A DNA stretch of 64,000 bases, taken from NCBI RefSeq assembly GCF_013315695.1, contig NZ_CP054353.1. One strand, given 5' to 3'. Position numbers and translations under genes: made by a program. This stretch comes from Escherichia coli. Lineage in GTDB: Bacteria; Pseudomonadota; Gammaproteobacteria; Enterobacterales; Enterobacteriaceae. Positions 10,692 to 64,000 of this stretch are shown here, piece by piece. The notes below the pieces were generated by a model, which saw nothing but the letters and a program-made list of their open reading frames with translations, did not search any database and was not told the origin of the DNA. Within the stretch, counting starts at the first letter, position 1. Every line of letters begins with the position of its first letter.

Positions 10692-10767
10692 GGCCCTTTA
10701 GCTCAGTGGTGAGAGCGAGCGATTCATAATCGCCAGGTCGCTGGTTCAAATCCAGCAAGGGCCACCA
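10692..10767 (+). tRNA. ileZ: tRNA-Ile2 (anticodon CAU, ileX/ileZ-like)
   Basis: 76 nt cloverleaf GGCCCTT...AAGGGCC-A-CCA; anticodon loop TTCATAA; close to the E. coli ileX sequence. Confidence 0.8.
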
Positions 10768-10774
10768 TCACATA

Positions 10775-10851
10775 CCGCCATTAGCTCATCAGGATAGAGC
10801 GCCAGCCTTCGAAGCTGGTTGCGCGGGGTTCGAGTCCTCGATGGCGGTCCA
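10775..10851 (+). tRNA. argN: tRNA-Arg (anticodon UCG)
   Basis: 77 nt; acceptor CCGCCAT/ATGGCGG; anticodon stem-loop CCAGC-CTTCGAA-GCTGG; T-loop GGTTCGAGTCC; 3' CCA. Confidence 0.8.
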
Positions 10852-10864
10852 TTATCTGTACCCT

Positions 10865-10941
10865 GCGTTATTAGCTCAGCCGGACAGAGCAATTGCCTTC
10901 TAAGCAATCGGTCACTGGTTCGAATCCAGTACAACGCGCCA
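10865..10941 (+). tRNA. argO: tRNA-Arg (anticodon UCU)
   Basis: 77 nt; anticodon loop CCTTCTAAG; T-loop GGTTCGAATCC; 3' GCCA; one acceptor-stem mismatch. Confidence 0.8.
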
Positions 10942-59355: not shown

Positions 59356-61389
59356 TTATTTCACCTGATGACCCGGTTTAGCACCAGCATCCGGGCTTAG
59401 CAGGAAGATATCTTTCCCGCCAGGACCGGCAGCCATCACCATGCCTTCGGAGATACCGAAGCGCATTTTACGTGGTGCCAGGTTAGCCACCATAATGGTG
59501 TGACGACCAATCAGTGCCTGCGGATCCGGGTAAGCAGAACGAATGCCGGAGAAGACATTGCGTTTTTCACCGCCGAGATCCAGCGTCAGGCGCAGCAGTT
59601 TGTCAGAACCTTCAACAAACTCTGCGTTTTCGATCAGCGCCACGCGCAGGTCAACTTTGGCGAAGTCGTCAAAGGTGATGGTTTCCTGAATCGGATCATC
59701 TGCCAGTGGGCCAGTAATTGGCGCGGCAGCTGCTTTCACTTCTTCTTTAGACGCTTCCACCAGTGCTTCAACCTGCTTCATATCGATGCGGTTATACAGC
59801 GCTTTGAACGGATTCACTTTGTGGCCCAGCAGCGGTTGCTGGATACCATCCCAGGTCAGTTCTGTATTGAGGAATGCTTCTGCGCGCTCGGTCAGTTTCG
59901 GCAGTACCGGCTTCAGGTAAGTCATCAGCACGCGGAACAGGTTTATGCCCATTGAGCAAATTGCCTGCAGGTCGGCATCGCGGCCTTCCTGTTTTGCCAC
60001 CACCCACGGAGCCTGTTCATCGACATAGCGGTTAGCCAGATCAGCCAGCGCCATGATTTCGCGTACTGCTTTACCAAATTCGCGGCTTTCCCACGCTTCA
60101 CCAATCACTTCAGCGGCATCAGTGAAGGTTTTGTACAACTGCGGGTCAGCCAGTTCGCTTGCCAGCACGCCGTCAAAACGCTTGTTGATAAAGCCCGCAT
60201 TACGAGAGGCCAGGTTAACCACTTTGTTAACGATATCGGCATTCACGCGCTGAACGAAATCTTCCAGGTTGAGATCGATATCATCAATGCGCGAAGAGAG
60301 TTTCGCAGTGTAGTAGTAACGCAGGCTGTCGGCGTCAAAATGATTCAGCCAGGTGCTGGCCTTAATAAAGGTACCGCGAGACTTAGACATCTTCGCGCCG
60401 TTCACCGTCACATAGCCATGAACAAACAGGTTGGTCGGCTTGCGGAAGTTGCTGCCTTCCAGCATTGCTGGCCAGAACAGGCTGTGGAAGTAAACAATAT
60501 CTTTACCGATGAAGTGGTACAGCTCGGCGGTGGAGTCTTTCTTCCAGTATTCATCGAAGCTTACGCTGTCGCCGCGCTTGTCGCACAGATTCTTGAAAGA
60601 ACCCATATAGCCAATCGGCGCATCCAGCCAGACGTAGAAATATTTACCCGGCGCGTTCGGAATTTCAAAACCGAAGTACGGCGCGTCGCGGGAGATATCC
60701 CACTGTTGCAGGCCGGATTCAAACCACTCCTGCATTTTATTTGCCACCTGCTCCTGCAACGCACCGCTGCGGGTCCATGCCTGCAACATTTCGCTGAAAG
60801 AGGGCAGATCAAAGAAGAAGTGTTCAGAATCACGCATTACCGGCGTAGCGCCAGAAACCACCGATTTCGGTTCGATCAATTCAGTCGGGCTGTAGGTCGC
60901 GCCGCAGACTTCGCAGTTATCGCCGTATTGATCCGGGGATTTACATTTCGGGCAGGTGCCTTTCACAAAACGGTCCGGCAGGAACATGCCTTTTTCCGGA
61001 TCGTACAGCTGAGAAATAGTGCGGTTTTTAATAAAACCGTTTTCTTTCAGGCGGCTGTATATAAGCTCTGACAGCTGACGGTTCTCTTCGCTGTGCGTAG
61101 AGTGGTAATTGTCGTAGCTAATGTTAAAGCCTGCGAAATCAGTCTGATGCTCCTGACTCATTTCGCCAATCATCTGCTCCGGGGTGATACCGAGCTGCTG
61201 AGCTTTCAGCATGATCGGTGTACCGTGGGCATCGTCGGCGCAGATGAAGTTGACCTCGTGGCCGCGCATTCGCTGGTAACGGACCCAGACATCAGCCTGG
61301 ATGTGCTCCAGCATATGGCCGAGGTGGATTGAGCCGTTAGCGTACGGCAGTGCGCACGTCACCAGAATTTTCTTCGCGACTTGAGTCAT
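59356..61389 (-). CDS. metG: Methionyl-tRNA synthetase
   Basis: 677 aa from [38 protein letters not shown] (HIGH motif), KMSKS present, Zn knuckle CPKC...CEVC. Confidence 0.95.
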
Positions 61390-61520
61390 AGTAGGCATTA
61401 CTTCTTAATAGTGAAAAGGGGTTAGATAGTACCAAATGGGAAAATGTTAAGTAAGTACTTCTCTATATTCTTCAGGTAAACTATCAGCTGATGGTTTATC
61501 TATACAAAAAAGGAGTCGGG

Positions 61521-62630
61521 ATGAACGAACAATCCCAGGCCAAATCACCAGAAGCCTTGCGCGCAATGGTCGCCGGGACACTGGCCAATTTTCAGCACCC
61601 AACCCTGAAGCATAACCTCACCACGCTGAAAGCGTTGCACCATGTCGCCTGGATGGACGACACGTTGCATGTGGAACTGGTTATGCCATTCGTCTGGCAT
61701 AGCGCGTTCGAAGAGTTAAAAGAGCAATGTAGCGCCGAACTGCTGCGTATCACCGGGGCGAAAGCTATCGACTGGAAACTGTCGCACAATATCGCCACCT
61801 TAAAACGCGTGAAGAATCAGCCGGGAATTAACGGCGTGAAGAACATCATTGCGGTCAGCTCCGGTAAAGGCGGCGTGGGTAAATCCTCCACGGCGGTAAA
61901 CCTGGCGCTGGCACTGGCGGCGGAAGGGGCGAAAGTCGGCATTCTGGACGCCGATATCTACGGCCCATCAATCCCCACCATGCTGGGCGCAGAAAATCAG
62001 CGTCCAACTTCGCCGGACGGTACCCACATGGCACCGATTATGTCTCATGGCCTTGCAACCAATTCAATTGGTTATCTGGTCACTGACGACAATGCGATGG
62101 TGTGGCGTGGTCCGATGGCGAGCAAGGCGTTAATGCAAATGTTGCAGGAAACCTTGTGGCCGGATCTCGACTATCTGGTGCTTGATATGCCGCCAGGCAC
62201 CGGTGACATTCAATTGACACTGGCACAAAACATTCCAGTAACTGGCGCGGTAGTGGTCACCACCCCGCAGGACATTGCGTTGATCGATGCGAAAAAAGGC
62301 ATTGTGATGTTCGAGAAAGTCGAGGTTCCGGTGCTCGGTATTGTCGAGAACATGAGTGTGCATATTTGCAGTAACTGTGGTCACCATGAACCGATTTTCG
62401 GTACCGGTGGTGCAGAGAAACTGGCCGAGAAATACCACACGCAGTTGCTGGGGCAGATGCCGTTACACATCTCCTTACGTGAAGATCTCGATAAAGGCAC
62501 GCCAACGGTTATCAGCCGTCCGGAGAGCGAATTTACCGCTATCTACCGCCAGCTGGCTGACCGCGTTGCAGCCCAGCTTTATTGGCAGGGAGAAGTCATT
62601 CCTGGCGAGATTTCCTTCCGCGCGGTCTAA
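61521..62630 (+). CDS. apbC: Fe-S cluster carrier ATPase ApbC (Mrp)
   Basis: 369 aa from MNEQSQAKSPEALRAM; P-loop SGKGGVGKSS; CxxC motif ICSNCGHHE. Confidence 0.9.
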   Translation: MNEQSQAKSPEALRAMVAGTLANFQHPTLKHNLTTLKALHHVAWMDDTLHVELVMPFVWHSAFEELKEQCSAELLRITGAKAIDWKLSHNIATLKRVKNQPGINGVKNIIAVSSGKGGVGKSSTAVNLALALAAEGAKVGILDADIYGPSIPTMLGAENQRPTSPDGTHMAPIMSHGLATNSIGYLVTDDNAMVWRGPMASKALMQMLQETLWPDLDYLVLDMPPGTGDIQLTLAQNIPVTGAVVVTTPQDIALIDAKKGIVMFEKVEVPVLGIVENMSVHICSNCGHHEPIFGTGGAEKLAEKYHTQLLGQMPLHISLREDLDKGTPTVISRPESEFTAIYRQLADRVAAQLYWQGEVIPGEISFRAV

Positions 62631-62660
62631 CGCGTATTAACCTTTTTGGTTGTTTTTCAT

Positions 62661-62700
62661 ACACCGCAGAGATGTACATTGATGCGGTGTATTTGTTTTT
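62661..62700 (+). terminator. Rho-independent terminator after apbC
   Basis: ACACCGCA-(14 nt)-TGCGGTGT followed by ATTTGTTTTT. Confidence 0.55.
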
Positions 62701-62891
62701 GCCGCATTAATGAACACTTATTTAATGCTACGAATATTCTGCGGACCTTCGTCCGAAACTCTATAAAGTCGATTGATCGTACAGGCAATGCTTCATTATC
62801 ATCCTTCGTGGCTGTGTAGTGGATGTACAGCTATAGTTTGTTATGCACTCATTCTATCCAGGCATAACCTTTACTACAGGGATAACGTTCA

Positions 62892-63170
62892 ATGAATAAG
62901 TACTGGCTGTCAGGAATTATTTTTCTTGCCTATGGAATGGCTTCTCCCGCGTTCTCTTCACAGACTGCCACATTAACGATTAATGGCAGGATCAGTCCCC
63001 CAACATGCAGTATGGCTATGGTTAATGGTCAACCTCAACAGCATTGTGGTCAGTTAACGTATGATGTTGATACCCGTCATCAGGTTTCTTCGCCAGTCAA
63101 AGGTGTAACGACAGAAGTGGTTGTTGCAGGTAGCGATAGCAAACGTCGGGTGATGCTGCCAACTTACTGA
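62892..63170 (+). pseudogene. yehE: yehE-like small protein, C-terminus replaced at the IS1 junction
   Basis: MNKYWLSGIIFLAYGMASPAFSSQTATLTINGRISPPTCSMAMVNGQPQQHCG...; the last codons and stop lie inside IS1 (starts 63149). Confidence 0.6.
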
Positions 63171-63203
63171 TTTAGTGTATGATGGTGTTTTTGAGGTGCT
63201 CCA

Positions 63204-63479
63204 GTGGCTTCTGTTTCTATCAGCTGTCCCTCCTGTTCAGCTACTGACGGGGTGGTGCGTAACGGCAAAAGCACCGCCGGACATCAGCGCTATCTCTGCT
63301 CTCACTGCCGTAAAACATGGCAACTGCAGTTCACTTACACCGCTTCTCAACCCGGTACGCACCAGAAAATCATTGATATGGCCATGAATGGCGTTGGATG
63401 CCGGGCAACAGCCCGCATTATGGGCGTTGGCCTCAACACGATTTTACGTCACTTAAAAAACTCAGGCCGCAGTCGGTAA
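63204..63479 (+). CDS. insA: IS1 InsA (copy 2)
   Basis: Identical to copy-1 InsA. Confidence 0.9.
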
Positions 63480-63901
63480 CCTCGCGCATACAGCCGGGCA
63501 GTGACGTCATCGTCTGCGCGGAAATGGACGAACAGTGGGGCTATGTCGGGGCTAAATCGCGCCAGCGCTGGCTGTTTTACGCGTATGACAGGCTCCGGAA
63601 GACGGTTGTTGCGCACGTATTCGGTGAACGCACTATGGCGACGCTGGGGCGTCTTATGAGCCTGCTGTCACCCTTTGACGTGGTGATATGGATGACGGAT
63701 GGCTGGCCGCTGTATGAATCCCGCCTGAAGGGAAAGCTGCACGTAATCAGCAAGCGATATACGCAGCGAATTGAGCGGCATAACCTGAATCTGAGGCAGC
63801 ACCTGGCACGGCTGGGACGGAAGTCGCTGTCGTTCTCAAAATCGGTGGAGCTGCATGACAAAGTCATCGGGCATTATCTGAACATAAAACACTATCAATA
63901 A
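63398..63901 (+). CDS. insB: IS1 InsB (copy 2)
   Basis: Identical to copy-1 InsB. Confidence 0.9.
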
Positions 63902-64000
63902 GTTGGAGTCATTACCTAAATAGGCTTGATGAAAGTTCTATTTCTATATTTTTCAATATACAAATTTCCCCAAAAACGGCGTGAATATCACGCCGATCAA

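Follow-up and report, generated by a model that had tools for sequence, protein, structure and literature searches.

In this study, we reconstructed the history of the second of two IS1 copies (copy 2) that lies close to the right end of a 64,000-nucleotide stretch of Escherichia coli DNA, which as a whole is called the window here. Our findings support a model in which copy 2 is very probably the single IS1 left behind after two neighbouring, directly oriented IS1 copies recombined, with the loss of about 5.9 kb of chromosome. Seen over its whole history, copy 2 would have arisen through three or more consecutive events within a single IS1-rich E. coli lineage. It is an ordinary IS1 recombination or deletion scar of an already known kind, and the route of bacterial gene loss that it exemplifies is well known. 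Insertion sequence (IS) copies that lack target duplications have been attributed to IS-IS recombination or to adjacent deletions, and in experimental evolution the deletions beside a fixed IS grow stepwise (PMC11708052).

Copy 2 is a complete and presumably active element (table 1). When it was queried by BLAST against the window, two matches were returned, copy 2 itself and copy 1, both on the + strand and both at 768/768, with a gap of 9,887 bp between the copies. The earlier note had described a second, direct IS1 about 9.9 kb from the first and identical to it in the coding regions, lacking a target duplication and clipping the 3' end of yehE; all of this holds on closer inspection, and the identity extends beyond the coding regions to the whole element. 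Its range, 62892-63925, takes in the truncated yehE ORF (62892-63170), the IS1 and the 9-bp right flank. As is typical of the IS1 family, copy 2 measures 768 bp and ends in imperfect terminal inverted repeats of about 23 bp, the left repeat agreeing with the reverse complement of the right one at 18 of 23 bases; it encodes insA and an overlapping insB', joined by a -1 frameshift at an A-run, and an identical IS1 copy in strain AF3 bears the RefSeq label 'programmed frameshift'. More narrowly, it resembles the IS1A isoform of E. coli and Shigella in its 768 bp, in its 23-bp ends starting with GGT, in its insA/insB' organization and in the A-run frameshift, and its sequence is that of copies which RefSeq annotates as 'IS1-like element IS1A family transposase'. 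Where copy 2 departs from IS1A, and from the family at large, is in the 8-9-bp target duplication, which it does not have: the flanks, CAAACGTCG on the left and TAAATAGGC on the right, come from two different insertion events. The missing duplication is nonetheless no argument against its identity as an IS1; each flank corresponds to one half of a duplication that is complete in another genome.

Table 1. Features of the window discussed in the text (positions counted from its first nucleotide).
Feature	Position	Strand	Remarks
IS1 copy 1, complete, direct, identical to copy 2	52494..53261	+	Marks a deletion of ~7.3 kb
Native interval between the IS1 copies	53262..63148	.	Collinear with MS 21-1
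WGR gene remnant	53262-53967	-	
molR-like gene split by IS4	53980-55593 and 57068-59215		
IS4, 1,426 bp	55659-57084		12-bp target duplication CATCCTTGTAAG; clean simple insertion in the molR-like WGR/DUF4132 gene
metG	59356-61389	-	
apbC	61521-62630	+	
yehE' (DUF2574 family)	62892..63170	+	Pfam DUF2574, E=1.7e-47; RefSeq annotation of the identical AF3 sequence
CAAACGTCG, probable kept left half of the target duplication of the original yehE IS1 insertion	63140..63148	+	Comparison with 2017.15.02CC
IS1 copy 2 (IS1A type), complete	63149..63916	+	768 bp; 768/768 identical to copy 1
IS1 left terminal inverted repeat	63149..63171	+	GGTGATGCTGCCAACTTACTGAT
insA, 91 aa, GTG start	63204..63479	+	Pfam Zn_ribbon_InsA and HTH_Tnp_IS1 (PF03811, PF12759)
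insB' reading frame, DDE transposase domain	63398..63901	+	Pfam DDE_Tnp_IS1 (PF03400), E=2.3e-78
Slippery run TTAAAAAAC, programmed -1 frameshift giving the InsAB' transposase	63453..63461	+	Motif located
IS1 right terminal inverted repeat	63894..63916	+	GGTAATGACTCCAACTTATTGAT
TAAATAGGC, probable kept right half of the target duplication of an IS1 at the HNH endonuclease gene end	63917..63925	+	Comparison with MSB1_4I and AF3
Integrase/HNH islet remnant: 3'-terminal 7 nt of the HNH endonuclease gene plus downstream DNA	63917..64000	+	84/84 matches

The two 9-bp flanks of copy 2 do not match one another, nor does a match arise when they are combined in every possible way with those of copy 1 (CGACAGGCA on the left, CAGTAGCAT on the right), which rules out a mutual exchange of duplications between the two copies. 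As controls for the detection of duplications we used two IS1 insertions in strain MSB1_4I, with CGCGATGAC and with TAAATAGGC respectively, together with the IS4 of the window and its 12-bp duplication. Comparison with an IS1-free reference, which had been proposed as a check, likewise gave no matching 9-bp repeats: in strain 503025 the flanks of copy 2 map 9,422 bp apart, this being the total that is missing from the window relative to that strain. The lack of a duplication is therefore not a matter of odd length, and a simple insertion with an unusual duplication length is ruled out. On the left side, native yehE reads ...CAAACGTCG/AATCGTG... at the insertion point. The native protein of strain MS 21-1 has 93 aa and the C-terminus ...SKRRIVLNRYD*; that of the window has 92 aa and ends in ...SKRRVMLPTY*, its first 86 residues being native (62892-63148) and the last 7 native codons having been replaced by six codons from the left end of IS1 and a stop within the left inverted repeat (63149-63170). 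Strain 2017.15.02CC carries an IS1 of opposite orientation, with 8 base differences, at the same nucleotide of yehE and with CAAACGTCG on both sides, and for the left flank of copy 2 the best reading is that one half of such a normal duplication has survived. On the right side, positions 63917-64000 are identical at 84/84 bases to AF3 L001 20132-20215 and to 503025 L003 12001-12084; as the window stops 84 bp past the IS1, the right-hand context rests on these 84 bp, which are present, as a single copy in each, in 69 of the 5,426 complete genomes that made up our comparison set.

Within this set, the complete genomes that best match the window are those of E. coli AF3 (NZ_OZ547117.1) and MSB1_4I (NZ_LR898874.1), the latter being the closest. 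Positions 48900-63916 differ from AF3 by 2 mismatches in 15,017 bases, and positions 47900-63916 correspond to MSB1_4I L004 1-16017 with 1 mismatch in 16,017 bases; both matches end exactly at the right end of the IS1. The left junction between yehE and IS1 is thus common to all three, and 3' of this IS1 both AF3 and MSB1_4I continue with a 5'-truncated yehA, rcnB, rcnA, rcnR, a TPP riboswitch, a tyrosine integrase gene and an HNH endonuclease gene. Immediately 3' of its IS1, the window has 84 bases from the end of the HNH gene and from the sequence beyond; in AF3 these are located 5,114 bp further on, where the site is uninterrupted (gttaa/taaataggcttgatg). In MSB1_4I, a third direct IS1 sits exactly at this point (...gttaaTAAATAGGC / IS1 / TAAATAGGCttgatg) and is bordered by a perfect 9-bp target duplication. 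The two MSB1_4I copies that matter here lie at L004 15250-16017 (yehE site, +, flanks gcaaacgtcg / cgtgagtac) and at L004 21135-21902 (HNH end, +, flanks TAAATAGGC / TAAATAGGC). Window 63149-64000, that is the IS1 plus 84 bp, is 100% identical to MSB1_4I L004 21135-21986, so that the window equals MSB1_4I minus 5,885 bp (21135-15250), made up of one IS1 and the 5,117 bp between the copies. The content lost is the yehA remnant, rcnB, rcnA, rcnR, one copy of the TPP riboswitch, the integrase and HNH genes and one IS1. The exact arrangement of the window occurs in none of the 5,426 complete genomes, the best matches stopping at the right end of the IS1, and the junction of IS1 with TAAATAGGC is found among them in MSB1_4I only. 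With at least 40 IS1 places in each of the two sister genomes, the evidence points to an expansion of IS1 in this lineage.

From these comparisons a succession of steps can be proposed. An IS1 would first have entered yehE at its 3' end, using CAAACGTCG as target, after which some 4.3 kb to its right would have been lost, comprising the rest of yehE, yehD, yehC, yehB and the 5' part of yehA. The gene order in the IS1-free strains 503025 and MS 21-1 is apbC, yehE, yehD, yehC, yehB, yehA, rcnB, rcnA, rcnR, and the loss itself is seen when the IS1-free state is compared with that of AF3 and MSB1_4I: the yehE junction falls after 503025 L003 2578 and the right junction of AF3 at L003 6872. Common as it is to the window, MSB1_4I and AF3, the yehE-yehA loss would be older than the split of their lineage; among the 5,426 complete genomes its junction is restricted to AF3 and MSB1_4I. 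The same genomes include neither a direct-orientation simple yehE insertion of the window's lineage nor an IS1 at the AF3 yehA junction together with an intact yehE, and we therefore infer these first two steps. In a third step, seen in MSB1_4I, an IS1 of the same orientation would have inserted where the HNH endonuclease gene ends, 5.1 kb downstream, producing the 9-bp duplication TAAATAGGC. Given that AF3 carries the yehE IS1 while its HNH site is uninterrupted, it represents the state before this insertion. Finally, as the exact identity of the junctions suggests, the identical direct copies would have recombined homologously and a 5,885-bp circle would have been excised. The hybrid IS1 that remained would be bordered on the left by the DNA next to the upstream copy and on the right by that next to the downstream one, and the flanks of copy 2 would be mismatched because such a hybrid keeps one flank from each parent. 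We infer, then, that the states followed each other from AF3-like through MSB1_4I-like to that of the window.

Both the precursor and the product expected of a deletion between direct repeats are at hand. MSB1_4I has two + strand copies, the distal one with the duplication TAAATAGGC, and the window is this precursor minus the interval and one IS1, with 5,885 bp missing and the other junctions identical. Since the window is the expected product of direct-repeat recombination, homologous recombination is taken as the mechanism of the last step; no crossover point is visible within copy 2, because the parental copies are identical. Deletions by homologous IS-IS recombination are described from IS-rich genomes and from evolution experiments (PMC11708052). 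The window is alike in that its precursor with two copies is represented by a near-identical genome, in that one IS remains, bordered by one outer flank from either parent, and in that exactly the interval and one IS have been lost; apart from a crossover that cannot be mapped between identical copies, there is no difference of substance.

An alternative is a one-step adjacent deletion, in which the yehE IS1 of an AF3-like ancestor transposed intramolecularly and replicatively into TAAATAGGC, 5.1 kb to the right, without any second IS1; the product, an IS1 joined to TAAATAGGCttgatg, would be identical to the window. IS1 is reportedly a classic producer of adjacent deletions, as Reif and Saedler are said to have described in 1975, which counts for this explanation. 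Adjacent deletions are also a common cause of missing duplications (PMC11708052), and the one-step mechanism is possible, beside IS-IS recombination, for the yehE-yehA deletion, and likewise possible for that at copy 1, as no two-copy intermediate of either exists among the complete genomes. We nevertheless regard it as unlikely for copy 2. MSB1_4I has a normal insertion with its duplication at exactly TAAATAGGC, and the same 9-bp target would need to have been struck twice, independently, in genomes that are 1 base apart in 16 kb; yet the site is no evident hot spot, IS1 being present there in one of the 5,426 complete genomes (MSB1_4I). An error of assembly is another alternative. Identical 768-bp repeats are a classic cause of collapse, and the missing segment is bounded exactly by the repeat copies, so the real genome could have the MSB1_4I arrangement, with 5.9 kb dropped where the assembler jumped between IS1 copies. 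We judge this very unlikely: the window runs unbroken over 64 kb through two IS1, an IS4 and a prophage, which suggests a finished or long-read assembly, where 768-bp repeats are easily spanned, and the missing segment is found nowhere else in the window.

IS1 copies also occur between yehE and yehD in other strains. The left junction of the window recurs in KFu023, where the right end lies in yehC, in AF3 and MSB1_4I (right end in yehA) and in 23CRST009 (right end near the 3' end of yehA); in the window itself, with its left junction at the yehE site, the right end is the HNH end, and in MB20 the left junction lies 7 bp upstream and the right end in yehB. A shared yehE-IS1 junction with varied right ends resembles the nested series produced by one-ended, adjacent deletions of IS1. 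However, the last step of the window has a two-copy intermediate with a duplication, and KFu023 has its right end at the position of an independent insertion that is widespread: its right flank is that of the yehC::IS1 insertion of MB07152, which has the 8-bp duplication CGATTTCG and appears widespread, many other genomes displaying the same two-piece match pattern. The intermediate in MSB1_4I and the coincidence in KFu023 thus imply that at least some of the nested series did not arise by one-ended transposition. On this evidence KFu023 would be a second case of a duplication-less copy of which one junction coincides with an ordinary insertion elsewhere.

Within about 0.6 kb downstream of the yehE site, 22 of the 5,426 genomes carry a direct IS1 and 26 an inverted one, at many different positions that derive from match spans only. 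The yehE site and its surroundings are suggested by these counts, which ignore shared ancestry, to be a hot region for IS1. From the 3' end of yehE to yehD (L002, L008-L011; H41-H62, H196-H220), IS1 clusters in both orientations, and the exact CAAACGTCG target has been used in at least three settings; further insertions appear, from match spans alone, at about -7, -13 and +19 bp and up to ~0.6 kb downstream. Published descriptions of yehE, or of the yeh operon, as a hot spot for IS1 were searched for without relevant results. We tentatively raise the possibility that the yehE 3' end (CAAACGTCG with 30 bp of surrounding sequence) is a true hot spot for IS1, struck independently in at least three E. 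coli lineages, and that IS1 there and in the AT-rich yeh genes repeatedly erases the Yeh pilus operon through IS-IS recombination, here together with rcn; selection against Yeh pili, and not mere opportunity, might drive this process.

Copy 1 reads as another deletion scar when set against MS 21-1, which was taken as the reference here, 503025 being too divergent in the molR/yehI region. Its left flank maps to MS 21-1 L007 4712, in the yehK-yehL spacer, and its right flank to L007 ~12007, which falls within the second gene of a group of three WGR/DUF4132 paralogues; what is missing comprises yehK, yehI and most of that second gene. Among the complete genomes, only AF3 and MSB1_4I share the junctions of copy 1, at the same locus, and none of the 5,426 holds an intermediate of this deletion. 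Apart from the IS4, the DNA between the copies runs collinear with IS1-free MS 21-1, at an identity of 99.9-99.98%, and the AF3 region from which it was annotated is 99.99% identical. Both copies are also present in AF3 and MSB1_4I, where their inner junctions are unchanged and the DNA between them is intact.

In Tn9, direct IS1 copies bracket a cargo. The earlier note had viewed the DNA between copies 1 and 2 in this light, as a recombination-prone, composite-transposon-like segment, and the window is indeed alike in having two complete, identical, direct IS1 with intact ends around 9.9 kb, the outer ends of which could in principle act together. That the pair and the DNA between them form, or arrived as, one Tn9-like unit is nonetheless extremely unlikely. 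Whereas a composite transposon is a foreign unit with an outer duplication, the 'cargo' here is native chromosome in its native place and order, the outer flanks CGACAGGCA and TAAATAGGC form no duplication, and beside each IS1 a separate stretch of native DNA has been deleted. No second location is known from other loci or replicons either: the junctions are confined to AF3 and MSB1_4I, where the arrangement is unchanged, and no plasmid carries the metG-apbC segment at ≥99% identity. The composite-transposon reading thus lacks support, and the DNA between the copies is native chromosome. The other half of the proposal, that the region is prone to recombination, was borne out in part: recombination between direct IS1 copies would already have happened at copy 2, but on its other side, across yehA'-rcnBAR-integrase-HNH, and not over the segment from copy 1 to copy 2. 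Across the latter, metG is reportedly essential in E. coli (Keio collection), so a deletion between copies 1 and 2 would be lethal and only duplication or amplification survivable.

Mobilisation of metG-apbC via plasmids was considered and rejected, the plasmid matches being mislabelled chromosome-sized records (96-98%) and homologues of ~91% identity on plasmids of ~112 kb. PLSDB evidently lists several chromosomes, 4.8-4.9 Mb in length, as 'plasmid' records. The metG and apbC homologues, compared with window 59300-62700, lie side by side on many E. coli plasmids of ~112 kb, such as NC_023916.1 (111,741 bp), at about 91% identity. Three paralogous WGR/DUF4132 genes (molR-like, second copy and yehI) stand in tandem in this lineage (window 53262-59215; MS 21-1 L007 5283-16523). 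The trio adjoins yehLMPQ (AAA ATPase, DUF5682, vWA, SWIM zinc finger), and its alleles have 70-83% identity to those of 503025 or no nucleotide match at all, the locus being hypervariable.

For the source strain, the reconstructed losses predict the absence of the Yeh chaperone-usher pilus operon and of RcnR/RcnA/RcnB nickel-cobalt efflux, the latter possibly seen as metal sensitivity. About one half of E. coli genomes are reported to contain Yeh pili, and a link has been drawn between these pili and both the binding of pectin and colonisation of the gut (PMC12778044). More generally, an IS copy without a target duplication should be taken for a deletion or recombination scar. Here, each step would be datable through comparison of sister genomes and the history fully reconstructable, which makes the locus a clean natural example of how an IS inserts, then recombines, and the deletion grows, in a lineage with an IS1 expansion. 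Otherwise the finding matters little, as it involves no departure from described IS behaviour.

Several neighbouring features deserve mention. The tyrosine integrase and HNH endonuclease genes form an islet upstream of thiM, of which window 63917-64000 is the remnant. In AF3, the islet is bordered on both sides by an 82-bp perfect direct repeat (L001 17811-17892 and 20739-20820) that overlaps the TPP riboswitch, which is therefore annotated twice; 503025 has a longer, 7.7-kb version (L003 9684-17564). From this layout the islet looks like an integrative element with the thiM leader as attachment site. The inverted IS1 of MSB1_4I with the perfect 9-bp duplication CGCGATGAC (L004 29169-29936, also at the end of AF3 L001) adjoins yegT, a gene that in AF3 has an internal stop. 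Left of copy 1, yehP has a 70-bp deletion at window 48391/48392 relative to MS 21-1 (L007 541-610) and is annotated as frameshifted in both AF3 and MSB1_4I. At the far left, a lambdoid prophage occupies the window from position 1 to ~41,900 and adjoins btsS (start 42129); it is 99.3-99.4% identical to its AF3 counterpart and carries tRNA-Met, tRNA-Arg(tcg) and tRNA-Arg(tct) at 10692-10941.
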